A stretch of 58,629 nucleotides of DNA, from positions 1 through 58,629 of IMG/VR virus record IMGVR_UViG_3300017652_000001; one strand, 5' to 3'. The position numbers and the translations under genes were made by a program. The stretch comes from a virus (taxonomy: Duplodnaviria > Caudoviricetes). The notes under the pieces are model-generated. The model was not told the DNA's origin. It searched no databases and saw only the letters and a program-made list of their open reading frames with translations. Below are positions 49 to 55,141 of the stretch, piece by piece. Positions within the stretch are counted from its first letter, which is position 1. Each line of letters opens with the position of its first letter.

Positions 49-168
49 TTTGTAGCACTTTTGTAGCCCTCAAGCTCTATGCAATTGCCGCAATTCTTTC
101 CACGCGGCCTCCCTGCGACCGTCGAGATAGTCCGCCAAGTCCTGAATATGGACGCCTTTGTAGCACTT
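49..168 (+). repeat. Putative integrase arm-type sites
   Basis: TTTGTAGCACTT at 49-60 and 157-168, TTTGTAGCCCT at 60-70; inverted copies near the right end. Confidence 0.55.
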
Positions 169-880: not shown

Positions 881-1120
881 TCACGTCCCCTCCTGCTCTG
901 CAAGGCGACGGGCGCGGCGGAAGTCTTCAACCGTCAGATCGGCCAAATGGCAACCATAGGCCTGCACAATCCATATCCGGTCATCATCCGGATCATCGCG
1001 GCCGACTTCATCCTCCACGTCGGCTACTTGGGCGAATAGTTTCAGCGCTTCCCGCATTTCGGCGTTCTCGCGCTCAAGCTGCTCGATGCGGTCTTTGTCG
1101 CTCAGCATTTTGCCACCCAA
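881..1120 (-). CDS. Hypothetical coiled-coil protein
   Basis: Contiguous ORF in the operon; start uncertain. Confidence 0.6.
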   Translation of the reverse strand: MGGKMLSDKDRIEQLERENAEMREALKLFAQVADVEDEVGRDDPDDDRIWIVQAYGCHLADLTVEDFRRARRLAEQEGT

Positions 1121-1641
1121 TATTGCCCTGCTTGAATTCTTTGGATCGTCGTTCGATTTACGCCGAACTTAGACGCAAGGTCTCTCTGGGTGATGCTGCC
1201 GGCCATCTCGCGAATAGAGCATACTTGATCCCACGTCAGTTTTGCGCTCGGGGTACGCTCTCCTCGAAGGAGAGTACCGCACAAAATCTTGTCACGTTCA
1301 TTTTCTAATTTTGTGCCATAGGAGAGATTGGAAGCAGCATTGTTCCTGGAGTCGCCATCCAAGTGGCGAACCTCATAGCCAGCCGGCTGTTCACCTAGAA
1401 AAGCTCTGGCCACGATCCGGTGAACGGAGACGTATTTGCGGATATCGTCGCGACCGAAAGACAAGGTGACGGTTCTATACCCGGCCCTTTCCCACTGCGT
1501 AAGCAGACCGCCCTTGGTTCTTTGCCGTGGTACAGAGTAAACTTGTCCTAGATCGCTGACATAATATCTTTCTTCATTGCCAACGACAGGCCTCCACACT
1601 CCGCCAAATTCTGAGTGCAGGCGTCCGACGATATCGCTCAT
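1102..1641 (-). CDS. NUMOD4-HNH endonuclease with C-terminal HTH
   Basis: WRPVVG..YYVSDLGQV (NUMOD4); VHRIVARAF..VRHLDGDSRNNAASNL (HNH). Confidence 0.88.
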   Translation of the reverse strand: MSDIVGRLHSEFGGVWRPVVGNEERYYVSDLGQVYSVPRQRTKGGLLTQWERAGYRTVTLSFGRDDIRKYVSVHRIVARAFLGEQPAGYEVRHLDGDSRNNAASNLSYGTKLENERDKILCGTLLRGERTPSAKLTWDQVCSIREMAGSITQRDLASKFGVNRTTIQRIQAGQYWVAKC

Positions 1642-16315: not shown

Positions 16316-16485
16316 CCGAATCCGAACTTCTCTCCGAAGAAATAGCGGAACTCGAAGCCGAGATCATGCGCCTCAAGGGCAGCATGAACCGCGCAGATAA
16401 CGGCGTGAAGCTGCATAGGCTCCGTGTCGCCAACCGCACATTGGAACGCCTGAAGGCGATCTCCAAGAGGGAGGCAGCAGCGTGA
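16312..16485 (+). CDS. Small coiled-coil protein
   Basis: Coupled ORF starting MTESELL. Confidence 0.6.
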   Translation: MTESELLSEEIAELEAEIMRLKGSMNRADNGVKLHRLRVANRTLERLKAISKREAAA

Positions 16486-17387
16486 AAGAAAATCTCGACG
16501 TTCGGCCTTCCCGAAAGCTACCTGACATGGAACCAACGCGCCCATTACTGCGGTGGCACGGCGGAAAGTGGATACTCGCTCCTTGGATTATTTCGTTCTT
16601 TCCCGACCATCGCGTCTATTGCGAGCCGTTTGGAGGCGCCGCCAGCGTTCTTGTCCGAAAGCCGAGGTCTTATGCGGAAATATACAATGACCTAGATGAT
16701 GATGTTGTGAATCTGTTCCGTGTGCTCCGTAGCAGCCGCTACGGCGAATTGACACACAACATCATTCATACGCCCTTCGCCAGGTCGGAATTTCGAGCAG
16801 CTTACGAGGAGACTGACGATCCCGTCGAAAGGGCGCGGCGTCTCATCATTAGATCATTTATGGGATTCGGATCAGACGGCCATAACGGCGCTCGTATGAC
16901 CGGGTTTCGGGCGAATTCAAATCGCTCGGGCACCACGCCAGCGCATGATTGGGCCAACTATAGCGAAGGGCTGGAGCTAATCATTTGGCGACTCGAAGGG
17001 GTCGTAATCGAAAACCGTCCGGCGATCGAAGTCATGGCTCAGTGTGACGGACCTGAAACTCTCCATTATGTAGACCCGCCATATGTTTGGGAAACCCGTT
17101 CCAAGGCAAAAAACTCAAGCAAGAAGAACTACCGACACGAATTAAGCAACGAGGATCATGAAAAGCTGCTCAGCTTTTTGGATGGTCTTAGAGGCATGGT
17201 CGTCCTGTCTGGCTATCCTCATCCTATTTACGATGAGGCGTTGGGACATTGGGAACGTCACGAGCGAAAGGCCCTCGCCGATGGCGCGCGGGAGCGCACT
17301 GAGGTTCTGTGGCTAAATCCCGCAGCCTCAAAGGCCAATGCTACCCGTACCGCGCAGATGCATCTTTTCGCAGGGAGCGCGGCATGA
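16482..17387 (+). CDS. Dam-like (D12 class) N6-adenine DNA methyltransferase
   Basis: WHGGKW, YCEPFGGAASV, YND, YVDPPY motifs. Confidence 0.92.
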   Translation: MKENLDVRPSRKLPDMEPTRPLLRWHGGKWILAPWIISFFPDHRVYCEPFGGAASVLVRKPRSYAEIYNDLDDDVVNLFRVLRSSRYGELTHNIIHTPFARSEFRAAYEETDDPVERARRLIIRSFMGFGSDGHNGARMTGFRANSNRSGTTPAHDWANYSEGLELIIWRLEGVVIENRPAIEVMAQCDGPETLHYVDPPYVWETRSKAKNSSKKNYRHELSNEDHEKLLSFLDGLRGMVVLSGYPHPIYDEALGHWERHERKALADGARERTEVLWLNPAASKANATRTAQMHLFAGSAA

Positions 17388-23710: not shown

Positions 23711-24031
23711 CTAGAGGCCTGCTGCTTTACGCAGATCATCGTTCATCCGGCTCTGCCAGCCTTTCCCGGTGGCTTTGTAGTGATCGATGACATCGGGATC
23801 GAGACGAAGAGACACATGCCGGCGCGGATTATCGACCGGCGGCCGGCCGCGCTTCGCCTTCTCCCGGTCGATGCTGGCGGCGAGATCGGGGAACACTTCG
23901 CGGAACGGCCTAGCCTGGGCCAATTCCTCGTCGGTTGCTTCCGGGTTATCCGGGTCGGATGCGATAGCCTTTTGAATTTCGGCCTCTTCCTCTTTGGTGA
24001 GGGGCCGTTTCGATGAAAACTTAGTAGCCAT
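23711..24031 (-). CDS. brnA: BrnA antitoxin
   Basis: RGRPP...VSLRLDPDVIDHYKATGKGWQSRMNDDLR. Confidence 0.92.
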   Translation of the reverse strand: MATKFSSKRPLTKEEEAEIQKAIASDPDNPEATDEELAQARPFREVFPDLAASIDREKAKRGRPPVDNPRRHVSLRLDPDVIDHYKATGKGWQSRMNDDLRKAAGL

Positions 24032-24278
24032 GGACTTTCCTTTCCTTGCTGCTCGCCGGCCGCATTGAAATGACGGAGATGGCTTCTGAGCCAAGCGGCT
24101 TAAAGATCACGGCAACGATGAGCATGCCCCTGAATTCGCCGATGGCCTTGGACCGGCCATCCCTGGAAGGGATGATGGTCGAGGCTTCGAAGAAGTCCAT
24201 ATCGAGATCGGCGAAATCCAAGCCGAAGTGCTTCTCGATATTGGTCAGGCGCTTGGTTTCGTCATAGGTGATCTTCAT
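24021..24278 (-). CDS. brnT: BrnT toxin
   Basis: ITYDETKRLTNIEKH.GLDF...R.KAIG...VISMRPASSKER. Confidence 0.92.
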   Translation of the reverse strand: MKITYDETKRLTNIEKHFGLDFADLDMDFFEASTIIPSRDGRSKAIGEFRGMLIVAVIFKPLGSEAISVISMRPASSKERKVHGY

Positions 24279-24284
24279 GGAAAT

Positions 24285-24348
24285 TGTGTAGCACATTTAA
24301 TGGGTGCAGCCAAGAATAAAAGTGCTACAGAAATATTTTTTGTACCAC
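24285..24348. promoter_or_regulatory. brnTA promoter/operator repeats
   Basis: TGTAGCAC 24287-24294, GTGCTACA 24322-24329, TGTACCAC 24341-24348. Confidence 0.55.
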
Positions 24349-36196: not shown

Positions 36197-36754
36197 ATGA
36201 AGTATTTCCAGCAGCTCGCGGCCGGCATCAATGTCACGCCGCTGATGAACGCATTGCAGCGCCAGCCGGAATTGTGGGACGCGAACCCGATCCGAACGAA
36301 GCACCCCGGCACGGCACATGCGGAAGTTTCAGACATCCTCGTCCGCTTCAACGATGTGGAGGAATATCTTCGCACCGGCGATCCGAGCGCCATTGTAGAT
36401 GACCGCGAGGCGATCGCCTATCCCGCGTGGGAGAAGCTTCCCCATATGCGGCCGATCATCTTCGACCTGATGCGGACCGTTGAGGCGACCCGGTTGGGCC
36501 GCGTGGTCATCACGAAACTGCCTCCGGGCAAGGAGATAACCCCCCACGTCGATCAGGGCTCCCCGGCCGAATACTACCGGCGCTTCCAAGTCGCGCTGCA
36601 GTCATTACCAGGCGCCTTGTTCACGATCGGAGATGAGACTGTAAACTTCCGGACTGGTGACGTCTGGATGATCGACAACCGGACGGTCCATGGGGTTGTA
36701 AATAACTCCGCGGACGACCGGATCGTCATGATCGTGGATCTGAGGTGCGAATGA
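36197..36754 (+). CDS. Aspartyl/asparaginyl beta-hydroxylase-like 2OG-Fe(II) oxygenase
   Basis: LPPGKEITPHVD (HxD), GDVWMIDNRTVHGVVN, DRIVMIVD. Confidence 0.85.
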   Translation: MKYFQQLAAGINVTPLMNALQRQPELWDANPIRTKHPGTAHAEVSDILVRFNDVEEYLRTGDPSAIVDDREAIAYPAWEKLPHMRPIIFDLMRTVEATRLGRVVITKLPPGKEITPHVDQGSPAEYYRRFQVALQSLPGALFTIGDETVNFRTGDVWMIDNRTVHGVVNNSADDRIVMIVDLRCE

Positions 36755-42809: not shown

Positions 42810-43022
42810 GCGGTCATGGGGAATCCACGTGCCTTTTGACGGCTCAATAATTCGAAAGGCACCAAGCCTTTCGCCAAGCCAAATCATCAAGGCGATAGTG
42901 AGCGCGCCAGCAAAATAACCATGGCCGAAGTCATCGCTGATACCGACCACCATGAATTCGACCAAGCGGTAGAATCCATACATCACTAGGATGCAGAAGG
43001 TGATGTAGATAAGCCTGAGCAA
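42780..43022 (-). CDS. Two-TM membrane protein (moron)
   Basis: Opposite strand to the late genes; two hydrophobic helices. Confidence 0.65.
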   Translation of the reverse strand: MLRLIYITFCILVMYGFYRLVEFMVVGISDDFGHGYFAGALTIALMIWLGERLGAFRIIEPSKGTWIPHDRSTTRLDRDL

Positions 43023-43029
43023 ATTAACC

Positions 43030-43368
43030 TCAATAACAAGTGGTATTTATCATTACCCCGTTTCGCATTGAGGTGCAATTGAGCGGGCGCTGAACTGGTG
43101 GCTGATAGACTTGTAAAGGCTGTGGCGTCGGGCGGCTCATGAGATAGGCGGCGGCCAGTTGGCGCCGTTGGGCGTCCTCGTTTCTAGCCTGTGCGTATAG
43201 CGTCTCACGGCAGTGGATATATTCCGGCGTGCCGGCCTTGGCCCCGAACGATTGGCATTTCTGATCCTGATCGGCATCAGCCTTTGCGCGTCGAAGGGCC
43301 ATATCCATTTCTGCCGTTTGGCATCCGGTCAGAAGCATTAACACCGAAATCAAAGCAAATCGAAACAT
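43030..43368 (-). CDS. Lipoprotein (moron)
   Basis: MFRFALISVLMLLTGC lipobox; CQSFGAK.GT.EY..C. Confidence 0.75.
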   Translation of the reverse strand: MFRFALISVLMLLTGCQTAEMDMALRRAKADADQDQKCQSFGAKAGTPEYIHCRETLYAQARNEDAQRRQLAAAYLMSRPTPQPLQVYQPPVQRPLNCTSMRNGVMINTTCY

Positions 43369-43430
43369 GGCATCCCCCGACAATCATGCCGGGAGATTAC
43401 GGTAACTCACTCAAAAGTCGAGAGAAGAAG

Positions 43431-44627
43431 ATGGCAACTATCCTGCCTTTGGGCGAAACCACGTTCTTTGACGCGAATGGCGATCCTCTCGCGTTCGGCA
43501 CTGTCGAATTCTATGTGCCGAACTCGACTGTCATGAAGGACACCTTTCAAGATAGTGACCAATCGACGCTAAATACAAACCCGGTTGTTCTCGATTCCGC
43601 CGGACGAGCTATCATTTTCGGTTCCGGATCGTACCGACAGGTGGTCAAGGACGTTTTCGGGAACCTGATCTGGGACAGGACCACCGGCGAACCCAGCGCG
43701 GGGATCGTATCGGCAGGCGGGACCAGCGGCGGCACGGATAATGCTCAAACCCTCACGGCGGGAACATTCGATGGCGAAGATGGCTCGACTATCCAGTTCG
43801 TAGCAGGCCTGAGCAACACGGGGCCGATGACCCTCTCTATCGGTGGGGGCGCCCCGATCTCCGTCCTTAAGAATGGCCCTAGCGGCCCGGATGAACTGGC
43901 CGAAGGCGATATCGTCACCGGGAATATCTATTCCGTCGCTTATAGCTCGGTACAGGCATCGTTTCAGTTGCTCACAAGTATCCCGCCGACGTTCTCGATC
44001 GCATCAGAGGCAGGCGCAAAAGCGGGCACGAACAACTCCGATCTGATGACACCTCTGAGGGCCCGTCAAGCGAGAGAGCAGGCGCGCGTTGATCTGGCCA
44101 GCGGGGCGACGGTCGATCTCGGGTCGGTATCGAGCCAATCAATACGGATTACTGGCACAACGCAGATTACGTCGTTCGGAGGGAGCGCGGAAGCCGGCGC
44201 GAGGAAGACGCTATATTTCGCCGGGGCTCTCACCCTCCGACATAACGCGACATCGCTCATTCTGCCGAATGGCGGGTCGAACATCGTCACGTCTGCGGGA
44301 GATACTTGTGAGGCGCTGTGCCTTGGGTCTGGGAATTGGGTTGTGTCGAGTTATCAGGACACGTCCTTCGCTACGCTCGAAACCCTATTGACCCACCTGA
44401 TCTACACCGGCACGAGCCCATCAAATACAAACTTTCCGATCGGGACATATCTTACTGTTTATGTCACTACATTTCGAGCCAGAAATGCAACGACAAATAT
44501 CTACATCGGCACTGACGGCACCAGCCTTTATGCAGCGGATATCGGACGAGGCGCGCAATTGGCTGGCCTGTGGAGTGCGCGGGGGAATGCCGGAGACGGC
44601 CGACAACATTTTCAGAGGATCACTTGA
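43431..44627 (+). CDS. Tail fibre/adaptor protein
   Basis: FFDANGDPLA.G...NTNPVVLDSAGRA head-binding-like N-terminus; MTPLR motif. Confidence 0.8.
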   Translation: MATILPLGETTFFDANGDPLAFGTVEFYVPNSTVMKDTFQDSDQSTLNTNPVVLDSAGRAIIFGSGSYRQVVKDVFGNLIWDRTTGEPSAGIVSAGGTSGGTDNAQTLTAGTFDGEDGSTIQFVAGLSNTGPMTLSIGGGAPISVLKNGPSGPDELAEGDIVTGNIYSVAYSSVQASFQLLTSIPPTFSIASEAGAKAGTNNSDLMTPLRARQAREQARVDLASGATVDLGSVSSQSIRITGTTQITSFGGSAEAGARKTLYFAGALTLRHNATSLILPNGGSNIVTSAGDTCEALCLGSGNWVVSSYQDTSFATLETLLTHLIYTGTSPSNTNFPIGTYLTVYVTTFRARNATTNIYIGTDGTSLYAADIGRGAQLAGLWSARGNAGDGRQHFQRIT

Positions 44628-44824
44628 TGATCTCTGTAGATATTAACTCTGTCATCCCCACCGACGAGACTGGCGTCTGGATAGTGAACATAACCTTTTC
44701 CAACTCCGATGGGGCTCGTCAGACCGTTGATTACTGCCTTCGCGATGATGACCCATTCGGGTTGTCTCCGTCGCTCATGAAGCGAATCTTTGGCGCCGAA
44801 GAGCGCCAGTCGCCACCAGCATAA
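44627..44824 (+). CDS. Small tail-fibre-associated protein
   Basis: TGATG coupling; YCLRDDDPFGLSP. Confidence 0.55.
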   Translation: MISVDINSVIPTDETGVWIVNITFSNSDGARQTVDYCLRDDDPFGLSPSLMKRIFGAEERQSPPA

Positions 44825-44887
44825 CCCCCATCCAACAATTCATCGATTGCGACAAGGTGACATTTCCCGTCCCTTGATGGAGCCCCC

Positions 44888-47374
44888 ATGCCTGATATTT
44901 CCGAAAAATTCTGGACCGAACAAGACGACCGGAACACCGAGAGCCAACCGAACGGCTGGCCCGGGAACATGCCGGCTCAGATCGATACGGTCGGCCGGAT
45001 GATGATGGGGGCCGTCAAGCGGTCGTGGCGTCGATCGAACCCATATTACCAGACGACGGGGACGAATGACGATTACGTCGTTGAGCCGGATGTGTCCTTT
45101 CCGCGCTTCAACGATTTCGAAGTTCTTCGACTGCGGGTCGACCGCGCCAACACTACTACGGCGCCAACGCTGCAGTTCGGCGAATGGCCGCTTGGGCAGA
45201 TCCGCAAGGTCTCGTCAACCGGCGTGATAGACCTCGCCCCCGGGGACATCGTAGCGGGGGCTGATCATCAATTCTGGTATGATGGCTTACAGTTCATCCT
45301 CGCCAATCCCGGCACACTTGATCCAGGCATTGATGCCAATCTCATGCATCGATCTGCCAATCTGGCCGACGTCGAAGACGTGGAGGAAGCGCGTGACAAT
45401 CTTGGACTAGGTACGGCCGCCACGGCGAACGCTGATGAATTTGCCACTGCGGCTCAAGGAGCCCTTGCCGATACCGCCCTTCAGGTCGTCACCGATGCCG
45501 ATCTCGCCGCCCCTGCGAATATCACTTACCTGAACCAGACCGAAACCACGTTGGATTTCTACGGCGGAGACGTGGTGGAGATGTTCAGCGTCTCGCCTGC
45601 CCGAAAGTTCTCCATCGGAGCGGGGAATATCGAATTCGATGAAGTGTTCTCCATCCCAGCCGGCGCACAGTTGAGCATCGAAAACGGGGCGATATTCATC
45701 CCGACATTCGAGCCTGTCGGCACTGCAAGGGCTACCCCACTGATTACGCTCGGCGCTGGCGTCTGCGCCAACTACCTCAAGATGCAGTTGGACACAGGGA
45801 TCAACACCATCCGTAAGGGGCTCCAGGTCGGCGATAACAGCCAGATCGGCTATATCGAATGCACATCCGCCGACTTGAACAACAACCGGACAGAATCAGG
45901 GTCGACCGACCTAATCTCTGGCGCTGTCATCATCACCGGTCAACACGTCCGCATCGACCAAATGGTTCTTTCACGTTTCGATCGCGGGTGGACAGTTGTC
46001 GACAGCACTGACGTTCAGATCGGACATATTCGTAATCTCGAAACGCTGATGGGCGGATACGTTCATGGCACTCGTGATCTTCATGTTTCCGGTGGTTACT
46101 CAACTGGCGCAAGTGTAGCCGATGCCGCTACTTTGAGCCGAGGGCCAATGACGCCTGGCTTGAATTCCCTTGTCTTGGCCGGGTGTTCCGATAGCTCATT
46201 CTCCAACTGGTATTCGTTCGACATTTTGGAGCATGCGGTACGTGTCGGCGGCGTAGCATCCGGAACGACTGTGCCGAATCACCGGATTGGGTTCATCAAT
46301 CACCAGCATTATCGCCCCTACGGATGCGGGTTTAAATGCGACGACGGGGACACGTTTAATATAAAGCGCATCCTTATACAGGGGCTCTACACAGAGGACG
46401 TTGGGCACGACAACTGGTTCGGGAGCCCGGGTTATCAAAATTGGTCGTCCGGAGGCGTCAACAACCCAGCTTCCGACAACGACGGCAATAAGGCCGGGTG
46501 TGCTATCCGCAACTCCCAATATGTAACTTTGCAAGGCTATTCCAACAAGAGCAGTCAATATGCGAACAGCGGTTATTTTGGCCTATGGATTGAGCGCTCG
46601 AACTATGTCCAGGGATCAAACATCGATGTTGAGAAGGCTCTCCATGAAGGGGTCGTTGTTCAATCGGGCGGCTCTACGTCGCCTGACCGTATTGAGCTTC
46701 GTGGTGTTGCTGCCCGTGACAATGGTGGTTCCGGCGTAAAACTGGATGCTACGCCGGCCAATACGACATGGCGCGGGACGCAGGTCATAGGCATCGATAG
46801 CCAACTGAATGCGGGCTACGGTGTCGAGATCACCGCTAGGCAGGACGGAGCGTCACCCTATGCCACCCTCACTTCTCGCATAGAAGGATGGGTTCGCGGC
46901 AACACCCTTGGCGGGATATCGCTCAACGCCAACGTAGCGGCTGATCCTGACTTTGTGGACGATACAGAAGAGACGGGGACGTTCACGCCGAGCATTACAT
47001 TCGCGACCCCTGGTGACCTGGCTCTTACGGCCGTGACTGCAAGCGGTAGATGGACGAGAAAAGGCCGCAGGGTTTATGTGGAGCTTTCCTATACTGGAAC
47101 GCCGACATACACGACTGCCTCAGGCGATTTCCGGCTTACAGGACTGCCATTCGCAGCGGCAGGCGGCCTAAGCACCTTCAACATCCAAGGCTCTGGCGTA
47201 TTTACGTGGCCTGCCAGCCGCACTCAGGTGTTTGTGCTTCCTATTTCTGGACAAACATACTGCAACGTTCGCGGTCTCGGCACTAACATCGCCAATTCTA
47301 CGGCATTCGCTGTCTCCGAAGTCCCAAGCGGGACGGCCGTAACCCTGAATTTTGCAGGCGAGTATCGCATCTGA
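44888..47374 (+). CDS. Tailspike with probable parallel beta-helix (polysaccharide depolymerase-like)
   Basis: NLADV....ARDNLGLGTAAT neck, N/G/I-rich repeats, C-terminal EETGTFTP..GRWTRKGRRVYV..GLPF. Confidence 0.8.
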   Translation: MPDISEKFWTEQDDRNTESQPNGWPGNMPAQIDTVGRMMMGAVKRSWRRSNPYYQTTGTNDDYVVEPDVSFPRFNDFEVLRLRVDRANTTTAPTLQFGEWPLGQIRKVSSTGVIDLAPGDIVAGADHQFWYDGLQFILANPGTLDPGIDANLMHRSANLADVEDVEEARDNLGLGTAATANADEFATAAQGALADTALQVVTDADLAAPANITYLNQTETTLDFYGGDVVEMFSVSPARKFSIGAGNIEFDEVFSIPAGAQLSIENGAIFIPTFEPVGTARATPLITLGAGVCANYLKMQLDTGINTIRKGLQVGDNSQIGYIECTSADLNNNRTESGSTDLISGAVIITGQHVRIDQMVLSRFDRGWTVVDSTDVQIGHIRNLETLMGGYVHGTRDLHVSGGYSTGASVADAATLSRGPMTPGLNSLVLAGCSDSSFSNWYSFDILEHAVRVGGVASGTTVPNHRIGFINHQHYRPYGCGFKCDDGDTFNIKRILIQGLYTEDVGHDNWFGSPGYQNWSSGGVNNPASDNDGNKAGCAIRNSQYVTLQGYSNKSSQYANSGYFGLWIERSNYVQGSNIDVEKALHEGVVVQSGGSTSPDRIELRGVAARDNGGSGVKLDATPANTTWRGTQVIGIDSQLNAGYGVEITARQDGASPYATLTSRIEGWVRGNTLGGISLNANVAADPDFVDDTEETGTFTPSITFATPGDLALTAVTASGRWTRKGRRVYVELSYTGTPTYTTASGDFRLTGLPFAAAGGLSTFNIQGSGVFTWPASRTQVFVLPISGQTYCNVRGLGTNIANSTAFAVSEVPSGTAVTLNFAGEYRI

Positions 47375-47578
47375 TCAGTGCCCTTTTAACGTCCTCACGA
47401 CGCCGAGGGACGCATTCATGAGTGCGGCGGCGTCCTTCTGGTCTGCCGCAGCCTCAATCCACTGCTCAACCGTTTCCTTGGGCACGCCTTGTCTTTCAGC
47501 GATGCTGGCGACGATCCGTTCCACGGCTGCAATCCGGAGGTGAAGGAAAAGGAAGGCGTTGTCTTCTGGTCTAGGCAA
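47375..47578 (-). CDS. Small hypothetical protein
   Basis: TTG start with GGAG RBS; divergent from the GT gene. Confidence 0.5.
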   Translation of the reverse strand: MPRPEDNAFLFLHLRIAAVERIVASIAERQGVPKETVEQWIEAAADQKDAAALMNASLGVVRTLKGH

Positions 47579-47634
47579 GTTTCAGCATCTCCTATATAGG
47601 GTCTCTTTCAGCGGAATAGCGGGTCTGGAGGAGT

Positions 47635-48510
47635 ATGGCAACGTGGGCAGTCGTGACTACGGTACGCGCACCGGAGCATCACGTTAAAAGGTTCATCAAG
47701 CACTATCTCGATGCTGGCGCGCGCCGTATCTACATCTTTTTTGATGACCCGGATTTTGCCTTCCCACAGAACGACGACAGGTTGAAGCAAGTCGTCTGTG
47801 ACGGGGAATATTGGAAGAACGGTCGGCCGGGCTCGATCGAGGATAGGCAGAGGTTTAATGCTCGCCGCGCCCTGAAATGGTCCGATTCCGATTGGCTTTT
47901 CCATTGTGACGCCGACGAGCTTGTGACCGGTCATGGGCCGATATCGGCTGCCTTGGCAACGGTCCCAGGGAATGTCGCCTCTGTTCTGGTGCCCCCGTAT
48001 GAGGCTGTTTACGTTCACGAGCCAAGCCAGCAAGATGCATTCGACACGCGCTATTTCAAGCGCCCGATGAAAGTAGAGACGGGATATCACCCGATCGTCT
48101 GGGAATGCTTCGGCCCCTTAAGCCGAATGACGACGGGAGGATTTTGGGGACACCTGAGAGGGAAGTCCTTCTACCGTAAGGCATTTTGCGATTTCATCCC
48201 GATCCATCGGTTCGAGGAATCGATCAACGGGCACCTCGTCAGCTATGAGGTGCCGGGGATGAAATTGCTCCATTTCGACACCCTGACCTTCATCGACTGG
48301 AAGGAAAAGAGCCTGAGACGGCTTGACGGCGCGGTTCTGGCGAAGGAAATGGGAGGGCGTCGCGAGCAGCAGATCGAGGCCGTCAGAAACGCGAGAGACA
48401 AATGGGGCGAGTGGGGTCTTCACGATCTTTACCGTCGGATGGCGGTTTTCGATGGCGATCTTATGCGAAAGGCGATTGAGGCGGGTTTCGTAGTAGAGGT
48501 TGATCGGTAA
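47635..48510 (+). CDS. GT-A fold glycosyltransferase (GT2/GT92-like)
   Basis: FIKHYL..GA..IYIFFDDP, RQ..N, WLFHCDADE, GH..GKS, LLHFD; GGAGGAG RBS. Confidence 0.85.
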   Translation: MATWAVVTTVRAPEHHVKRFIKHYLDAGARRIYIFFDDPDFAFPQNDDRLKQVVCDGEYWKNGRPGSIEDRQRFNARRALKWSDSDWLFHCDADELVTGHGPISAALATVPGNVASVLVPPYEAVYVHEPSQQDAFDTRYFKRPMKVETGYHPIVWECFGPLSRMTTGGFWGHLRGKSFYRKAFCDFIPIHRFEESINGHLVSYEVPGMKLLHFDTLTFIDWKEKSLRRLDGAVLAKEMGGRREQQIEAVRNARDKWGEWGLHDLYRRMAVFDGDLMRKAIEAGFVVEVDR

Positions 48511-49196
48511 TGCGTTTACCACTGAAAGCAATGAATGGCGAGGAACTAGCCTGGACACTCCTCCGCGACAGAGGGTTCCGGGTTCATTGGGGGCAGTCGG
48601 GGGAAGATGCTGTTCTTGAGCGGGTGTTTGATCGCAAGAAGAACGGCTTCTACGTGGATATCGGGTGTCACCACCCCAGGGAGTTGTCGAACACCTACGT
48701 CCTTCACCGGTTCTATGACTGGAGCGGGATCAACGTCGATGCCAGCCCGGAATCCATTCGTCTCTTCAACGAGGCGCGACCGAAGGATATCAACATCAAC
48801 ACGCTGATTGGCGAGGGTAAAGAAGAGGTCGAATTCGTCCTTTTCAAGGATCTCGCCAGAAGCACCGCCGATGCGGCGACGATCAACGACCTGAAGCGTC
48901 GGGGCTTTGCGATCGTATCCACCACCAAAATGCGGCCTCGCACACTCAAGTCCATTCTTGACGAGCATGTAAAACGGGGTCAGGAAATCGATCTTCTGAG
49001 CGTCGATATCGAGAGCTTCGATCTTGCTGCGCTCAAAACGTCCGACTGGTCGAAATACCGCCCGAAGGTCGTATGCGTCGAGGACCATGCTTTCAAGCAT
49101 CAGGACGGCGAAACCGAGATCAGGGCATACATGCGGAGCATCGATTACAAGATCGCCTCGCATTGCTTCGATACCTCGATCTATTCGAGGGGTTAA
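48510..49196 (+). CDS. FkbM-family SAM methyltransferase
   Basis: QSGED, GFYVDIGCHHP..SNT, WSGINVD, IDLLSVDIE, RPKVVCVE. Confidence 0.9.
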   Translation: MRLPLKAMNGEELAWTLLRDRGFRVHWGQSGEDAVLERVFDRKKNGFYVDIGCHHPRELSNTYVLHRFYDWSGINVDASPESIRLFNEARPKDININTLIGEGKEEVEFVLFKDLARSTADAATINDLKRRGFAIVSTTKMRPRTLKSILDEHVKRGQEIDLLSVDIESFDLAALKTSDWSKYRPKVVCVEDHAFKHQDGETEIRAYMRSIDYKIASHCFDTSIYSRG

Positions 49197-49200
49197 CCAA

Positions 49201-49614
49201 ATGCCTAAATACATCCCGCTTCAGACCGGCTTGAACGTAGACGCCTCGAAAATGTCGCTTGCCGGCACGCGCCAAAAGGGCTTCGCATTTTTCGCTGATT
49301 ACGCGGATTCTGAAGCGGGATCGATTATCCGGGTGTCATTCCAGAAGACGTTTATCTTCAAGGTCGCCGTCAGCGTCGATACGCCGTATGAGGAAAAGAC
49401 ACCGATCGAAGGGCTCGTGAAAAACCACTTCGGATACATGATGTGGCATTCCTTCTTCTGGGAAATCCATAAGGAGTCCATCGAAAGCGCTGACGAGAAG
49501 CTGCGGCATTACAGGTTCGTTACACCTGAGAGCTGCCTGGATATCATCGCGAGCACAGACCCATATATCCGGCCGATCATCACTGGTTCTGTCGCCCAAC
49601 CGGTACAGCAGTAA
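49201..49614 (+). CDS. Hypothetical protein
   Basis: GAGGG RBS; third gene of the GT operon. Confidence 0.65.
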   Translation: MPKYIPLQTGLNVDASKMSLAGTRQKGFAFFADYADSEAGSIIRVSFQKTFIFKVAVSVDTPYEEKTPIEGLVKNHFGYMMWHSFFWEIHKESIESADEKLRHYRFVTPESCLDIIASTDPYIRPIITGSVAQPVQQ

Positions 49615-50350
49615 AGATCAGTAGGCCGACGAACAGCGTGATTGCGCTGACCCAGGCGAGATAGGCGAGGTCGCCGCCATCAGAGCCGATCTGCTTGTAG
49701 AAGCCTTCGCGGAAAATGATGATGATCTGTGTTATCGGGTTATCGAGAATGAAGTCTCGATAGGGTGAAGGCAGTGACATGGGGATATAAAAGACCCCGG
49801 AGATCATGAACAGCGGCCTTGACGCGATTTCGAAGACCTTTTCGTAAATGGGGAAACGGACGAATAGCACGATATTCGCCAGCGATATTCCCAACGCGAA
49901 ACACCAAGCGAGGAAGGTGGATTCCAGCACTGGGGCCCAATTCACCTCAAGAGGGTAACGGTCAAACGAAGCGGTCCCCCAAATAATGACAATGGCCACG
50001 ACGGTTGATGTGAGGGCCTGAAGCCAGAACCTCGCAATGACCGCATCGATTGGAGCGACCTTCGGGTAAAGCATCAGGCTCTTATTGGAGCCAATGGCGG
50101 ACGTAACATACAGGTGCATGCCTCTGTACATGTTGAACGGCACCCACCCGGTCGCGAAGAAGAGCAGAAAATTATCGCCAAGCGCGGGAGTTCTGGCAAC
50201 TCCGCCGGCGACGAAACTCATGATCGCTATATAGCCTACCGGCTCAAGGATGGCCCAAAGATAGCCTCCTGACGTTCTGCTATATCGCGTCGCCATTTCT
50301 CGCAGCAGGAAGGCAGCGACGGTGCGGGCGTGGGCTTTCAGGTGATACAC
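49580..50350 (-). CDS. kpsM: Capsular polysaccharide ABC exporter permease (KpsM/RkpT-like)
   Basis: AFLLREMATRY...GGYLWAILEP, YPKVAPIDAVIAR, RPLFMISGVFY..LP, NPI..I..FREGFY; six TM segments. Confidence 0.9.
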   Translation of the reverse strand: MYHLKAHARTVAAFLLREMATRYSRTSGGYLWAILEPVGYIAIMSFVAGGVARTPALGDNFLLFFATGWVPFNMYRGMHLYVTSAIGSNKSLMLYPKVAPIDAVIARFWLQALTSTVVAIVIIWGTASFDRYPLEVNWAPVLESTFLAWCFALGISLANIVLFVRFPIYEKVFEIASRPLFMISGVFYIPMSLPSPYRDFILDNPITQIIIIFREGFYKQIGSDGGDLAYLAWVSAITLFVGLLIFTAVPVGRQNQ

Positions 50351-50356
50351 GGTAAT

Positions 50357-50485
50357 TCATCCTTCTTTAGGATGATCTGGCGCGGCACGCGAGTCCTTAT
50401 CCTCGGTTTTTGCAGCCAGTAGAGACTCCAAGAGCTTGAGGTTTTTTGGCTTTTTCTTCTGATCTTCATTATTTTGTATGGCCAC
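50357..50485 (-). CDS. 42-aa charged peptide upstream of kpsM (not in the ORF track)
   Basis: AAGGA RBS, GTG start; MAIQNNEDQKKKPKNLKLLESLLAAK...; stop 6 nt before kpsM. Confidence 0.45.
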   Translation of the reverse strand: MAIQNNEDQKKKPKNLKLLESLLAAKTEDKDSRAAPDHPKEG

Positions 50486-50568
50486 GGCTGTTTCCTTTCC
50501 GGTCTCGGCCGGCCCACAAAAACCGGACAGACGCCCATCGTCAAGCGGTAAGCGTTCTTATGCAACCC

Positions 50569-50616
50569 TTGATCGATCTATGAAACGAAACTAAGATCCT
50601 CCTCACAATGGAGGAT
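50569..50616 (+). promoter_or_regulatory. Sigma70-like promoter with overlapping palindrome
   Basis: TTGATC-N17-TAAGAT; ATCCTCC-N7-GGAGGAT at 50596-50616. Confidence 0.55.
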
Positions 50617-50619
50617 TGC

Positions 50620-50958
50620 ATGCTGGAAAAAATCGGCACGCCTGGGAATGAAAGCCTTTCTCGCCCTCAATACACCACCATCGCCAACGTCAAGAAGTTA
50701 CTGGAGATAAACGGGGACCCGATTATTGCGGATAGGCTTCTGAAGGTCGGCGGAACCATGGACCTCGATGATTATCATTGGACATTTGCTGGGTCGCGCT
50801 CCATGAAAGCCGTGCGTCACAGATATATGACGCCGGAGCAAGAAGAGGCGAAGCAGGTGAAGATGGTTGTCGATACATTCATCAACGGAATCAAGCGGTG
50901 GGAGGTTCTTGTCGAGAACCGCATCTATCGAAAACTCGCGGATGTTTATGCTGAATGA
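50620..50958 (+). CDS. Hypothetical protein
   Basis: GGAGG RBS; 112 aa. Confidence 0.7.
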   Translation: MLEKIGTPGNESLSRPQYTTIANVKKLLEINGDPIIADRLLKVGGTMDLDDYHWTFAGSRSMKAVRHRYMTPEQEEAKQVKMVVDTFINGIKRWEVLVENRIYRKLADVYAE

Positions 50959-51164
50959 GTGAAGGTCGGTTCAGCCTCAAGATCACTCCCGGCCCCGGCG
51001 GTCTCTTCTGCGCCGTAAAGGTGACCGGGATGGCGGCCGATGAAGCCCTTACCGAAAGCGTCCCGATCGGCCGTTTAGATGATGAGATAGAAAACCTGAT
51101 CTCAGAACTCAACGAACTTAGACGGCGAGCGCGAGAATTCACGGACGCGCTTAAGCCGCACTAA
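50955..51164 (+). CDS. Hypothetical protein
   Basis: ATGA coupling; C-terminal coiled coil. Confidence 0.65.
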   Translation: MSEGRFSLKITPGPGGLFCAVKVTGMAADEALTESVPIGRLDDEIENLISELNELRRRAREFTDALKPH

Positions 51165-51167
51165 TAC

Positions 51168-51192
51168 AGCCCCGCTTCGGCGGGGTTTTCCT
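51168..51192 (+). terminator. Rho-independent terminator
   Basis: AGCCCCGC-TTCG-GCGGGGTT followed by TTCCT. Confidence 0.85.
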
Positions 51193-51292
51193 TTGCGCGG
51201 CGTAACCGCGCCGTTCCTTCATCAACATCGGAGAAACCTATGACCCGACGCATCCGTGCGGCGGCGCTCCTGCATGCGCGGGAGGCTGGCCT

Positions 51293-52246
51293 ATGATCAC
51301 GCAAACCGATCTGCGCAAGATCAGCAAGAGCAAGTCGCCAAAGACGAACCTGCTCGATGCGATCACCGCGATTGCCGATCAGTTCAAGCCTCACCAGTTC
51401 GCGCACGTCCTGGCACAGGTGATGCACGAAAGCGGCGGCCTGTTCTATGATCGGGAGGTGTGGGGGCCGACAGAGGCCCAGAAGCGCTATGAAGGTCGCA
51501 AGGATCTCGGCAACACCCAGAAGGGCGACGGTTCGAAATTCCGCGGCTATGGACCGATGCAGGTCACCGGCCGCGCCAATGTCACCGAGTTCTTCAACTG
51601 GTGCAAAAAGCGCGGGCTCAATCCTCCGAGCTTCGTCGAGAAGCCTGAACTGATCGCCACGTCGCCGTGGGCCGGCTGGTCCGTCGTCTGGTATTGGTCG
51701 ACGCGGAACCTCAACCAGTATGCCGACGCCAACGATATCGAGATGATCACCCGCAAGGTGAACGGTGGCCTCACCGGCTACGAGGACAGGCTGAGCTATT
51801 ACGACCGATCGGCGCTCGTCATGCTCGGATACGATCCGACAGACATCCGCGGGTTCCAGTCATGTGCTGGCCTCGCTGTCGATGGAGTGAGCGGCCCGCA
51901 GACGAGGGCAGCGATGCACCGGCAGCTTGTCGCGCTCGTGCCGGCGGAAGCTTCGCGGCCAGAGGTAAAGGCTGCTCCTGTGGTCGAAGAGACGACTGTC
52001 GAAGTCCCGAAGCCCGTCGTTCCGGAGAAGGTCGAAAAGGAAGTCCGCAGCAAGACAAACTGGATCACCGGCATATTCGGAACCGGCGGCGCTGCAACTG
52101 CCATTGCCACCTGGCTCGCCGGCATGGACCGGGATGCCTTGATCCTGATGGGCATCATCTTCGTCGTGTCAATGGCCACCATCCTGATCGGCGGGGAATG
52201 GATCGTGCGGCGGGTGAAGTCGATCCGCCGGGAAATCGAGGCGTGA
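51293..52246 (+). CDS. Endolysin: GH19 domain, PG-binding motif and C-terminal TM helices
   Basis: AQVMHESGG, GDGSKFRGYGPMQVTGRAN, ITRKVNGG, GLAVDGVSGPQT. Confidence 0.9.
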   Translation: MITQTDLRKISKSKSPKTNLLDAITAIADQFKPHQFAHVLAQVMHESGGLFYDREVWGPTEAQKRYEGRKDLGNTQKGDGSKFRGYGPMQVTGRANVTEFFNWCKKRGLNPPSFVEKPELIATSPWAGWSVVWYWSTRNLNQYADANDIEMITRKVNGGLTGYEDRLSYYDRSALVMLGYDPTDIRGFQSCAGLAVDGVSGPQTRAAMHRQLVALVPAEASRPEVKAAPVVEETTVEVPKPVVPEKVEKEVRSKTNWITGIFGTGGAATAIATWLAGMDRDALILMGIIFVVSMATILIGGEWIVRRVKSIRREIEA

Positions 52247-52247
52247 G

Positions 52248-52499
52248 ATGTTCGGCCTCTTCGATTACCTCAAGCTTGGGGCAGGGGCCATCGTCGGCGC
52301 TGCCCTGATGACGACTCCCGCCTACTTCTACGGCAAGAGCGCAGAACGCCAAGCGGCCAAGATCGAGGAAGCGAAAAACGCCCTCGAACGCATTCAAACC
52401 CTGGAGAAGAACAATGCGAACTTCCGTGCTCTATCGGATCGCGACCGTTGCCTTGTGTTCATGCGTGATAGCGGCCTGCCAGAGCAAGAGTGCGACTGA
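52248..52499 (+). CDS. i-spanin (Rz-like)
   Basis: N-terminal TM, coiled coil, C-terminal Cys; follows the endolysin. Confidence 0.7.
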   Translation: MFGLFDYLKLGAGAIVGAALMTTPAYFYGKSAERQAAKIEEAKNALERIQTLEKNNANFRALSDRDRCLVFMRDSGLPEQECD

Positions 52500-52632
52500 C
52501 GGTTCCGGTTATCAGATCGTCCGCTTCTCTGATGCTGTCGCCGCCCGTGCTGCTTCGCAGGACGCGACGGCCGGACCGGCGATCTCGTCCAACAATGATC
52601 AGTGCCGGCGCGATGTCGGCTGCCGCAAGTGA
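52414..52632 (+). CDS. o-spanin lipoprotein (Rz1-like)
   Basis: Overlaps the i-spanin; IAAC lipobox; two C-terminal Cys. Confidence 0.7.
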   Translation: MRTSVLYRIATVALCSCVIAACQSKSATDGSGYQIVRFSDAVAARAASQDATAGPAISSNNDQCRRDVGCRK

Positions 52633-52641
52633 GGCCCGCTG

Positions 52642-54285
52642 ATGCGCTTGTCCCTCGATATCTCCCTCTCCGGCATGCTCACCATGAACAAGGGCGGTGG
52701 GGGCGGCATTCCGTCATGGGTGCCGAAAGACGGTTCCGGCGTCCCCGCCATTCTTGTCCTCGACCAGGCGAATGATCGCGGCTGGTACAGCAGCGCTGCT
52801 TATTCGACAGAGGCAGCGGCGCTAGCGGCAGTTGATGGATCCGCATCGGGGATCGCCAGGACTGTCGGGAATTATGTCCCGACGGATGCCGCCGAGCTTT
52901 TGCCCAACGGCGATTTCTCCGCAGGGATTGGCGATTGGACCGGCTTGAACGGCGCGGCCGGTACTGTCGTGGATGGTGCCTTGCAGATGGTCGGGGATGG
53001 TAGCACGGCCAACCCGACTGTGCGTTCCGGGGCAGCGGCTACGGTGCAGGGACACTATTATGTCGGACGTGCAGATTATAAGAAAGGTACGTCTCTCGGC
53101 AGTCCTCTGATCATCATCAGTCGCGCCTCTACTATGTCGCCGCTCAGCAACAGCATGCCGGCTACGAGCTCGACCGAGTACGTCTCAGGGATTCGCGGCT
53201 TCGGCGGTGAAGGTGCATCGGCCTATATGGGCTTGCGCACGGTAAGCGCTAGCAACGGAACTTCTTTTGCCGATGGCTTCTCGTTGATGGAGGGTTCCGC
53301 CTTCGCAGGATTCAAGCCTTCCGAGTTCGCCGCCATTATCAACTTCCGAATGCCTGTCTCGCTGCCTGCCTCGGCTAAGGTGCTGTTCTCCTTCGACGAC
53401 AGCGGCGCCCGCAATCGTTACCGGGCTGCTCTGAATGCTGACGGCACCATGTCGTTGATCCTGACCAGTAACGGCGTAGATCGTGCCACCTATACAGTTC
53501 CGGCCGACCTGCTGCCCGTCGATACGGATCACAAGTTGCACATCACGTCCAACGGATTGATGGCTAGCGGCTCAGATCGCTTCCTAGCCGCGCTTGATGA
53601 CGTCAATCTCTTCGGTAGCCAAGGCGGCTTCACGCCCCCCGGCTGCGGGTGGGTGCGTATCGGAGCCTCGCCGACCGCTGGCGAGGAATGGACCGGGCAG
53701 ATCTACAATGCCGCCATATTCGATCACGCGGTTGTGCCAGAGTATTTCCTGTGGGCTGTCGGTGACAGCTACGTTGCGGGAGTTGCTGGAGCAAGCGTTG
53801 AGGGTGGCATCGAGGCATCATCCTCCCGGCAGGTGATATCGACCGGTGCCGGCGGTAGCACTATATCCACTCAGCTTGCTAACATGCAGGCCAGGCCGGA
53901 CCTATCTGGCAACCCCCTTGTCTTTTGGGATGGAGATGCCAACGGGGCCAATCTTGCGGCTGACCAGACCGTGTTCGAGGCCATGGCTGCTATCAGCTCG
54001 AAGCACATCTTCGTCGGATCGGGCCGTCGCGCCAACAACACGGATATCGCCGCAGCGACGAACGAACGGAATGACTGGCTCTCGTCTCGCTTCGGCGATC
54101 GGTATCTCGACCCACACCCGACCCTTTATGCGCTGTCGGATGGATCGGCCGGCGACATAGCCGCCGTCGCCGCTCAGCAAATCCCGCCTTCCTGTCTGCA
54201 AGGCGACGGAACGCATCTGACGCCGACCGCTATGACGGCTGTAGGTGCGGCGATCGTGGCGAAGGTTGCCGCGCTCGGGTTCTGA
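52642..54285 (+). CDS. Carbohydrate-binding-like domains plus SGNH/GDSL hydrolase domain
   Basis: ELLPNGDFS..W (CBM-like), LamG-like middle, VGDSY...GAGG...N...DGTH. Confidence 0.7.
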   Translation: MRLSLDISLSGMLTMNKGGGGGIPSWVPKDGSGVPAILVLDQANDRGWYSSAAYSTEAAALAAVDGSASGIARTVGNYVPTDAAELLPNGDFSAGIGDWTGLNGAAGTVVDGALQMVGDGSTANPTVRSGAAATVQGHYYVGRADYKKGTSLGSPLIIISRASTMSPLSNSMPATSSTEYVSGIRGFGGEGASAYMGLRTVSASNGTSFADGFSLMEGSAFAGFKPSEFAAIINFRMPVSLPASAKVLFSFDDSGARNRYRAALNADGTMSLILTSNGVDRATYTVPADLLPVDTDHKLHITSNGLMASGSDRFLAALDDVNLFGSQGGFTPPGCGWVRIGASPTAGEEWTGQIYNAAIFDHAVVPEYFLWAVGDSYVAGVAGASVEGGIEASSSRQVISTGAGGSTISTQLANMQARPDLSGNPLVFWDGDANGANLAADQTVFEAMAAISSKHIFVGSGRRANNTDIAAATNERNDWLSSRFGDRYLDPHPTLYALSDGSAGDIAAVAAQQIPPSCLQGDGTHLTPTAMTAVGAAIVAKVAALGF

Positions 54286-54303
54286 CCAAGCACTTGGCGA
54301 TCC

Positions 54304-54531
54304 TTATTTGTCCGCGTGTCCTGCCGCCGCGATTTCGTAAAGCGCATCAAAAGCCTGCGCCACGCTACCTGCGGCCAGTGCGGCGTCTGGATAAGTGCCG
54401 AGCAGACAGCGCAACTCCTCTTCGGCCAACCCGAGCAGATAGGAGAGAAGTCCTGTGCCAGATTCCCTTCCGGCTAAAAGGCGGCACGCTTCGATATGCT
54501 TCTGGATCGTCGTCAAATTGCTCATGTTCAA
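54304..54531 (-). CDS. Hypothetical protein
   Basis: LLSYLLGLAEEE helix; RBS upstream. Confidence 0.55.
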   Translation of the reverse strand: MNMSNLTTIQKHIEACRLLAGRESGTGLLSYLLGLAEEELRCLLGTYPDAALAAGSVAQAFDALYEIAAAGHADK

Positions 54532-54874
54532 CCCCCGTCATAGTATTTTGCTACCATGAGGTGGTGGCGGGTTTGATCCTGCTGTTTTGAGGGGAAAAGC
54601 GGTAATCCACAGTGAAGTTTTCGCCCCAGCGCTCCATTCATAAAGGATGGGATAAGCGGCGGCCGGAGCGTCCACACATCCCCGGCCGCTTCTACTCGCA
54701 AACAAGTATCTCACCACGTGCACATGAGCGGCCTGACCTTACGGACGGATGCCGGCTGGTCAACCCTGGGATATCGTCTCATGAAGTTCCGCCACACCGA
54801 GCCGTTCAAGGTCGCGTGCATCGCGGCCTTCGTGCTGATCACCGTCGCTTCATGGTTCTGGTAGGAGGGGCGCA

Positions 54875-55141
54875 TTGGAAAGCCTTCCCGGCGAAGTAGC
54901 TACATGGCTGCTCAATCAGGGCCCGCTCGGGTTCACCACCCTCATGGGCTTCGCTCTCTACGTCTATGAACGCTATGCCCGTCAGAAGGACCGCGAGGCC
55001 TACGACACGGCTCTCAAGGCCGCGCAGGCAGAGCATATCGAAACCTTGAAAACTGTCACGCCGCTGGCCCAGAAGTTCACCGACACGATGGATGTCATCC
55101 TGCCGCTCGCCATGGCGCAGCTAAACAGGAGGTCGGAATGA
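54875..55141 (+). CDS. Holin-like single-TM protein
   Basis: AGGAGG RBS, TTG start, QGPLG-TM-coiled coil. Confidence 0.6.
   Translation: MESLPGEVATWLLNQGPLGFTTLMGFALYVYERYARQKDREAYDTALKAAQAEHIETLKTVTPLAQKFTDTMDVILPLAMAQLNRRSE

Follow-up and report, generated by a model that had tools for sequence, protein, structure and literature searches.

Among the described systems closest to the locus considered here are the serotype-conversion morons gtrABC of P22 and oac of Sf6, which lie beside the tail-spike gene and are presumed to hide the receptor. Lysogenic conversion of O-antigens is already known, but these genes act on O-antigens of the Wzx/Wzy pathway, using bactoprenol-linked glucose or acetylation, and we know of no classical serotype-conversion moron that includes a subunit of a polymer exporter. 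Prophage CUS-3 O-acetylates the K1 capsule, and both it and the prophages of Acinetobacter baumannii supply, to our knowledge, enzymes only. That A. baumannii prophages drive capsule change is described in PMC13228068. Here we describe a locus in a stretch of 58,629 nucleotides (nt), called the window in its full length, which is a complete IMG/VR virus record (IMGVR_UViG_3300017652_000001; CheckV completeness 100%) and, judged by its gene content, a P22-like temperate phage. The slot from its tail-spike-like gene to the lysis genes holds four genes: a glycosyltransferase gene, an FkbM methyltransferase gene, an open reading frame (ORF) without relatives (the ORFan), and kpsM, which encodes a KpsM-type permease. 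The locus has the layout of a moron, with glycan-modification genes outside the core modules of a temperate phage. It shares with the P22 and Sf6 morons the position of surface-glycan-modifying genes beside the tail-spike gene of a temperate podovirus. With the A. baumannii prophages and CUS-3 it would share an alteration of the lysogen's capsular polysaccharide, but it adds to the enzymes a subunit of the export channel of the ATP-binding cassette (ABC) pathway.

A second counterpart belongs to rhizobia themselves. The rkp-3 locus (PMC5429615, PMC4053727) has a second KpsM gene apart from the ATPase gene, flanking strain-specific methyl-, glycosyl- and phosphotransferase genes. In Sinorhizobium meliloti, where this second, unlinked gene is named rkpT2, swapping the variable transferase genes beside it led to a changed K-antigen capsular polysaccharide (KPS) and to phage resistance (PMC5429615). 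The literature searched, as far as its text was available, reports no function for rkpT2. Like the rkpT2 type, the kpsM gene of the window flanks variable polysaccharide-synthesis genes (those of the glycosyltransferase and FkbM proteins), but it lies on a phage rather than on a megaplasmid or chromosome. Its product is 41-46% identical to the Sinorhizobium copies, whose unpaired members form a clade separate from the Neorhizobium/Rhizobium-type clade of the window protein. Prophage-driven capsule change and rkpT2 are known, whereas a KpsM without KpsT on a phage was not found described. The full-text literature searched, with most subscription journals outside its reach, held no description of a phage-borne KpsM or RkpT, and the available part of a survey of sinorhizobial prophages mentions only a lipopolysaccharide (LPS) glycosyltransferase (PMC5537653).

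The permease gene (49580..50350, minus strand) encodes 256 amino acids (aa) from a GTG start that is preceded by AAGGA at 10 nt. The protein matches PF01061 over residues 14-218 (30.8 bits, cut-off 26.9), and among NCBIfam models KpsM NF050053 scores highest, with 84.9 bits where the equivalog level begins at 300 bits, and VexB comes next; by the KpsM score it is a family-level relative and not an equivalog of enterobacterial KpsM. The sole PDB match at an expect value (E) of at most 0.01 is 8tsh_C, the KpsM of the KpsMT-KpsE complex (PMC11041684) and the only solved relative (E 9.3e-25, residues 11-246). The alignment to it contains two gaps of 2 residues each, and a simple hydropathy scan shows four clearly hydrophobic stretches. 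The ranking of PDB and NCBIfam matches places the protein nearer to KpsM than to Wzm and TarG, the permeases for O-antigen and teichoic acid. Among the 59 columns that are conserved at 90% or more in 89 relatives, 55 are kept, including R17, E18, R22, R107, R178 and R214; R22 aligns with Arg35, a lipid-binding residue of the solved KpsM, and the region of the N-terminal interface helix is conserved. Apart from lacking a linked KpsT and scoring below the equivalog level, the protein differs from the solved complex in having Tyr81 and Glu174 at the positions of Arg94 and Arg187. Tyr or Phe at position 81 is common to the whole rhizobial family, and the invariant Arg178 lies four residues past Glu174.

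The glycosyltransferase gene (47635..48510, plus strand; 291 aa) has its ATG behind a strong ribosome site, GGAGGA, and its product matches PF13704 (E 2.1e-10; 41.4 bits, cut-off 27.5). The AlphaFold2 (AF2) model reaches a predicted local distance difference test score (pLDDT) of 84.4, and its Foldseek neighbors are the GT-A enzymes SunS, GalS1 (a GT92 enzyme) and TarP, with template modeling (TM) scores of 0.34-0.48. Residues D92, D94 and E95, in a D-x-D-E stretch, are invariant in all eight sequences of the family alignment. TarP of Staphylococcus aureus (PDB 6h1j and others) is a prophage-encoded wall-teichoic-acid glycosyltransferase; it is a GT-A neighbor of the window protein but differs from it in polymer and host, with a TM of about 0.34-0.36 and 10-12% identity. 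The start of the FkbM gene (48510..49196, plus strand; 228 aa) overlaps the glycosyltransferase stop. Its product matches PF05050 (E 2.7e-20; 73.7 bits, cut-off 22.7), while TIGR01444, at 21.8 bits against a cut-off of 37.7, leaves the subfamily level unreached. The ORFan (49201..49614, plus strand; 137 aa) begins with an ATG at 49201, five bases 3' of the FkbM stop. It has no relative besides itself among 5.8 billion proteins and no match in Pfam, PHROG or PADLOC. Its GC content at third codon positions (0.68) is coding-like, compared with 0.47 for the opposite-strand ORF, and its Atlas model (predicted TM score, 0.79) resembles unnamed bacterial proteins of 125-158 aa; by composition and model the ORFan is probably a real protein. 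The three-gene arm converges with kpsM in an overlap of 35 nt. The glycosyltransferase, FkbM and kpsM genes all appear intact and tightly coupled, and no PHROG family was found for any of the four genes.

The initial annotation had described just this anatomy, a glycosyltransferase, an FkbM methyltransferase and an ORF converging on an intact KpsM-type permease, and the Pfam, NCBIfam and PDB matches bear it out. The span given for the locus, 47635..50485, has the genes at their proper positions, whereas its end lies 135 nt past the start of kpsM. The cassette is no assembly chimera, because contigs of an independent run, X2, bridge both of its borders with 0 differences: one, matching 45908-49083, runs from the tail-spike gene through the glycosyltransferase into the FkbM gene, and another, 49638-51494, joins kpsM, two small genes (orf116 and orf69) and the start of the endolysin gene. 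A cassette-less variant in runs X2, X4 and X5 was considered and rejected; these runs hold the same sequence at low depth, and their partial rows reflect thin coverage.

The absence of partner genes, also claimed at the outset, holds for the whole phage. No PF00005 (ABC_tran) domain occurs in the 58.6-kb record, whereas the same search was positive in 14/14 control genomes, and no Poly_export/KpsD domain was found in the record either. A KpsE/RkpR match at 50207-50488 reached 13 bits, ran through a stop and lay in the kpsM frame, and was read as noise. The other phages carrying such a gene are alike in this respect: by a sequence-motif test, none of the 7 viral loci has an ABC-ATPase-like ORF within 6 kb of kpsM, and a search of five whole viral records found a KpsT homologue in none. 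Among the bacterial genomes, KpsT is encoded elsewhere in 8/8 checked carriers of a solo KpsM, three of which are lysogens (the prophages L017, L015 and L083/L063; L numbers are our handles for loci).

The gene combination of the window stands alone, and the pattern to which it belongs recurs. A profile scan of IMG/VR yielded 7 KpsM loci among 108 pattern matches, representing four elements (L077; L078/L079/L080; L081/L082; L083). The profile scan alone found these loci; single-protein scans of IMG/VR with KpsM and with the glycosyltransferase gave no match. With the prophages L017 and L015, which were added by a scan of genomes, there are six other prophage contexts with a lone KpsM, and in five of them the permease gene lies between tail-fibre or tail-spike genes and an endolysin gene, with glycan enzymes that differ each time. 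In L077, tail fibres (one with a GDSL domain) and a DUF6270 protein precede KpsM, which is followed by a heparinase II/III-like protein and the endolysin. L078 (also L079 and L080) has tail fibres, a polysialyltransferase-like PF07388 protein, KpsM between two paralogous proteins, and a GH108 endolysin, and L081 (also L082) has a GDSL tail protein, CST-I/GT8 and GT29/GT1 transferases, KpsM and an endolysin. L017 carries a tail fibre, a tail spike, a Stealth protein, a rhamnosyltransferase, a small ORF, KpsM and a lysozyme, and L015 carries tail fibres (one with a sialate-esterase-like domain), a LamG protein, a GT8 enzyme, a small ORF, KpsM and a lysozyme. In the sixth context, L083 (the same as L063), KpsM stands between a phosphoribosyltransferase and an HNH endonuclease followed by an integrase. 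The lone KpsM is thus present in at least seven prophage contexts with two tail types; it recurs, travels with glycan enzymes and mostly stands beside tail-fibre genes. Solo copies also occur in chromosomes, two of them in islands that carry an integrase along with FkbM, GT1, acetyltransferase or KpsC/S-like genes (L018, L014), and one each beside an endolysin homologue (L008), in a Kdo/KpsC/S capsule locus (L076; Kdo, 3-deoxy-D-manno-octulosonic acid) and among housekeeping genes (L003).

The permeases of cassettes with different cargo are 40-78% identical, and those of cassettes with the same cargo are near-identical. Between the kpsM genes of L078, L079 and L080 there are 5-9 synonymous and 0-2 nonsynonymous differences (nonsynonymous divergence dN, 0.003; synonymous divergence dS, 0.027-0.048); these counts, which are small, point to purifying selection in this lineage. 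The two paralogues on either side of KpsM in L078 (8872-9783 and 10727-11602, both on the minus strand) are proteins of about 300 aa with 52% identity and no Pfam or PHROG family. A further small-protein family, A2, of about 120-155 aa and 21-39% mutual identity, occurs beside or near an unpaired KpsM in 11 loci, often directly downstream of it (L017:10833-11219, L014:10859-11224, L018:10789-11160, L081:9575-9979, L015:10783-11193, L020:11635-12063, L037:6272-6655, L008:12674-13060, L042:9396-9770, L067:11858-12226(-) and L061:10817-11284(-)). Save for one weak Phage_ABA_S match it has no Pfam family, and the window contains no member; kinship with the ORFan or with orf116 of the window was rejected (hhalign probability, 0.1-0.3%). 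Also set aside, as not comparable, were tblastn matches to KpsM on four unverified faecal "Bacteriophage sp." scaffolds, at 22-24% identity; on the faecal scaffold L179 a permease gene is followed by an ABC-ATPase-like ORF, which is an ordinary paired operon.

Where these permeases belong was assessed in the family at large. In an even sample of 401 family genomes, 42 had a match at E of at most 1e-20 (among them G081, a weak row at 31% on which no other claim depends) and 13 had one at 39% identity or more, none above 54%; 6 of these 13 genomes had two such copies. A profile scan of species-representative genomes gave 74 loci, and from these and the viral loci 93 KpsM ORFs were extracted, leaving out L051, L065 and L071, which had no clean ORF. 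Each was labelled as paired, near or solo by its distance to an ABC-ATPase-like ORF. A careful maximum-likelihood tree was calculated from 95 rows, after the duplicates L063, L079, L080 and L082 had been dropped and the window protein and five outgroup proteins added. The KpsT-adjacent KpsMs form one clade of 48 rows (45 paired and 3 solo; support, 99/93), and every other copy belongs to one of three further clades, all six phage rows among them. The window protein is in a 20-row clade with a support of 100/97, where 10 near copies are joined by 8 solo and 2 phage ones. The near copies stem from kpsM1-kpsT-(448-aa gene)-kpsM2 arrays of Neorhizobium and Rhizobium, which argues that a KpsM of this kind works with the same KpsT as its neighbor. 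By its place in the tree, the window protein belongs to the KpsT-unlinked KpsM paralogues of the Rhizobiaceae.

The Sinorhizobium loci agree with the published layout, rkpT1-rkpS-rkpR ... rkpZ2-rkpT2 (PMC5429615). L022 has rkpT1-rkpS-rkpR-epimerase-Capsule_synth, with a second KpsM on the opposite strand. The stretch extracted from S. meliloti GR4 (L184) contained only rkpT1-rkpS-rkpR, and its KpsM beside rkpS shares 90% identity with a paired Sinorhizobium medicae row and 46% with the window protein. A second KpsM without KpsT is common in the Rhizobiaceae and hence a known, though unexplained, feature of rhizobial genomes. The lack of a KpsT gene, which had drawn attention to the locus, therefore holds for the phage but is no anomaly in the family. 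The initial annotation had also considered that kpsM might be a one-off, decaying capture almost identical to a host copy. The closest relative, from Neorhizobium petrolearium, is 55% identical, and the lone KpsM, which recurs in prophages, is no isolated case and was not recently copied from a host gene.

We hypothesize that the locus is a lysogenic-conversion cassette for a capsule of the ABC-transporter-dependent type (rhizobial K-antigen/KPS type), whose permease works with KpsT, KpsE and KpsD of the host, and consider the case for it evenly balanced. Sugars would be added or altered by the phage enzymes, namely the GT-A glycosyltransferase, the FkbM protein as an O-methyltransferase and perhaps the ORFan, and the phage would contribute its own KpsM-type channel subunit. 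Because an ATPase, a periplasmic adaptor and an outer-membrane pore are all missing from the phage, this subunit would have to use the KpsT (RkpS), KpsE (RkpR) and KpsD of the host; it may dimerize with itself on host KpsT or combine with the KpsM of the host. A changed or an extra polymer would then appear on the lysogen, and this surface would alter how the phage itself and its competitors adsorb, and possibly how plants recognize the strain. Everything from the host partnership onward is inferred, including that the genes are expressed in the lysogen, which polymer changes and how adsorption responds, and draws on the operon context of the clade relatives, the presence of KpsT in all carriers checked and, by analogy, on the transferase swaps of S. 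meliloti.

Several observations weigh against this proposal. A promoter scan gave no match above chance, also in the AT-richer, divergent intergenic region between kpsM and orf116 (50351..50607; 257 nt; GC, 0.486), where the promoters of both genes would lie, and no RNA runs containing the prophage DNA were found. The glycosyltransferase, FkbM and ORFan genes could be late genes, because they are on the late-gene strand and no terminator is predicted after the tail-spike gene, and their coexpression with kpsM is not assured, because kpsM is on the opposite strand. The combination of genes has been seen only once, its cargo having no relatives near other unpaired KpsMs or near relatives of the glycosyltransferase: a comparison of the window ORFs in 47300-51250 with 2484 ORFs near unpaired KpsMs gave 0 matches besides kpsM, and 80 metagenome loci with glycosyltransferase relatives held no relative of FkbM, the ORFan or KpsM. 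In the permease itself, G24S and P27S are unique among 90 sequences. They lie just after the interface helix in a T-R-Y/F-G-x-x-P-G-G-Y stretch in which Gly24 is otherwise invariant and Pro27 near-invariant, and together with the long branch of the protein (0.84) they could mean altered or lost function. As to the partners, the eight genomes checked for KpsT are those of other carriers and do not include the host of the window prophage, and the ATPase labels of most loci come from the sequence-motif test, with a Pfam check in L004 and L022. Finally, KpsMT is reported to have a broad substrate specificity and to recognize the conserved Kdo-lipid end (PMC11041684), which leaves a dedicated permease unexplained. 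For the second KpsM of rhizobia this means that either a different anchor or linker is recognized or the protein has another role.

If the phage permease does work with the host ATPase, this would be the first case found of a lysogenic conversion that includes part of the capsule exporter. It would also supply a role for rkpT2, the so far unexplained second KpsM of rhizobia, and would allow the specificity of the permease to be tested directly with gene sets that are small and portable. Both phage adsorption and nodulation are affected by rhizobial K-antigens, so that such prophages could change which phages and plants a strain handles. In capsule loci of the ABC type the export genes are viewed as constant and polymer-blind and the synthesis genes as variable; here a channel subunit of the exporter is mobile, highly divergent and travels with variable synthesis genes. 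A bolder version, which we put forward tentatively and find rather doubtful, is that the unlinked KpsMs are exchangeable, fast-evolving, substrate-selecting subunits that reprogram one shared KpsT/KpsE/KpsD machinery, and that temperate phages of the Rhizobiaceae carry, beside the genes of their receptor-binding proteins, plug-in cassettes of a KpsM and the enzymes that define a new polymer. Lysogeny would then install a second, phage-specified capsule instead of only decorating that of the host. The permease, too, would then determine the capsule type, contrary to the polymer-blind view of KpsMT, and phages could shift phage sensitivity and legume recognition.

Of the other explanations, the one that survives best, although we regard it as unlikely, is that two unrelated morons lie side by side: the glycosyltransferase and FkbM would modify the LPS O-antigen or another glycan, and KpsM would have a separate role or none, for instance as a hitchhiker taken up together with flanking DNA of an rkp-3-like region. 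The enzymes and kpsM do lie on opposite, converging strands, and the permissiveness of KpsMT described above (PMC11041684) means that enzymes alone could suffice. The two parts also differ in their phyletic neighbors, with Roseobacter-group proteins (Yoonia, Pacificoceanicola) among the relatives of the glycosyltransferase, and no co-occurrence of them was found. An accidental neighborhood is, on the other hand, at odds with the independent, recurrent association of solo KpsM and glycan enzymes at one slot in phages of differing type, with the intact length, the conserved residues and the purifying selection on prophage copies, and with the lack of any transposase or repeat signature of a recent capture in ORF and Pfam scans of the region. 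Comparison of 17 window proteins with the 74 genome loci matched KpsM only, plus one endolysin in L008.

Distinctly less probable is that the phage KpsM poisons the exporter, a variant that the initial annotation had offered alongside modified export. The permease would block host KpsT/KpsE or form dead mixed dimers, the receptor would be lost and superinfection excluded, and the enzymes would be unrelated cargo. The substitutions G24S and P27S beside the N-terminal interface helix, the long branch and the lack of an own ATPase would suit such a blocker. It fits poorly, however, with the biosynthetic enzymes that constantly accompany KpsM: a pure blocker would not need them, and they are present with the solo KpsM in 5/6 other contexts. 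Chromosomal members of the clade stand within kpsM-kpsT-kpsE-type arrays, and a blocker could be far more degenerate than a protein that keeps 55 of the 59 conserved columns and all six Arg/Glu positions checked. Last, it appears very improbable that late expression serves to modify the envelope or debris of the dying cell so that virions escape trapping, instead of converting the lysogen: the glycosyltransferase, FkbM and ORFan genes do come after the tail-spike gene, on the late strand, with no terminator predicted in between, and a capsule has been described to limit the readsorption of released virions in the case of an Escherichia coli prophage (bioRxiv 10.64898/2026.09.09.750276), but kpsM, on the opposite strand, cannot join a late transcript, and building and exporting a polymer needs time and an intact envelope.

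The left border of the cassette is formed by a gene for a tail-spike-like receptor-binding protein of 828 aa (44888..47374, plus strand) with PHROG tail-fibre matches to residues 148-207. The protein has a mosaic build: over residues 1-175 it shares 64% identity with that of a related P22-like phage (L181), whose sequence stops inside its tail-spike gene so that the comparison covers no downstream slot, and over residues 228-828 it shares 62-63% with tail proteins of the otherwise unrelated phages L084 and L085. In these two, a minus-strand gene without assigned function follows the tail gene in place of the KpsM cassette. The description of the protein as a beta-helix tailspike could not be confirmed: it has no Pfam family even at E of at most 1 and no PDB relative except for a 59-residue collar stretch, and its AF2 model (pLDDT, 38) is unusable. 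Its role as a receptor-binding tail spike is suggested by its position, the PHROG tail-fibre matches and its mosaic build. Between it and the glycosyltransferase gene lies a possible small gene, orf67 (47375..47578, minus strand; 67 aa), whose GC content by codon position (0.66/0.43/0.66) is coding-like. It has no Pfam family, and a 15.5-bit PADLOC match is the sole match to a defence model.

On the right, kpsM is followed by orf116 and orf69 (50608..51164, plus strand), whose stop and start overlap. Neither matches a family of Pfam, NCBIfam, PHROGs or PADLOC, and together they resemble a small moron unit of their own, set between kpsM and the gene for the endolysin. Just 3' of orf69 lies a terminator-like hairpin (51168..51187, plus strand) with an 8-bp stem, 6 GC pairs and a T-rich tail; the number of terminator-like sites in the region equals that expected by chance, and placement is the sole argument for this one. 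The right border of the cassette is made up of genes for an endolysin of 317 aa and an Rz-like protein of 83 aa (51293..52499, plus strand), both with PHROG matches (phrog_14712 at E 4.9e-104, phrog_9506 and phrog_181 for the endolysin; phrog_12535 for the 83-aa gene). Located 3' of the lysis genes, orf547 (52642-54285; 547 aa) has a LamG-like match at 24.1 bits, below the cut-off, and may encode a second receptor-binding or a polysaccharide-esterase protein. A GDS-type esterase motif seen in it by eye is unsupported by Pfam, and the protein has no PDB relative. In L077, L081 and L015, the KpsM cassettes likewise have flanking tail proteins that bear GDSL or SASA esterase domains.

The phage encodes small (gp3-type) and large terminases and the portal (E 2.6e-159) and coat proteins of the P22 type, as well as RecT and a D12 methylase, with a tyrosine integrase at the right end. 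No tRNA genes were found in the record, and a megablast search of 43000-55000 against known phages had 228 nt of a Rhizobium phage as its sole match. The prophage boundaries of IMG/VR records are predictions. Within the virion-structural module lies a gene for an aspartyl/asparaginyl beta-hydroxylase-like cupin (36197-36754; PF05118, E 5.3e-14), which is unusual for a P22-like phage. A gene for a BrnA-type antitoxin is present at 23711-24094 on the minus strand (PF14384, E 9.2e-25), and a 91-aa ORF upstream of it (24021-24296) could be the toxin partner. The early regions contain genes for a PrtN-type activator (70-351, minus strand), an HNH/NUMOD4 endonuclease (1102-1641, minus strand) and the D12 adenine methyltransferase (16482-17387, plus strand).

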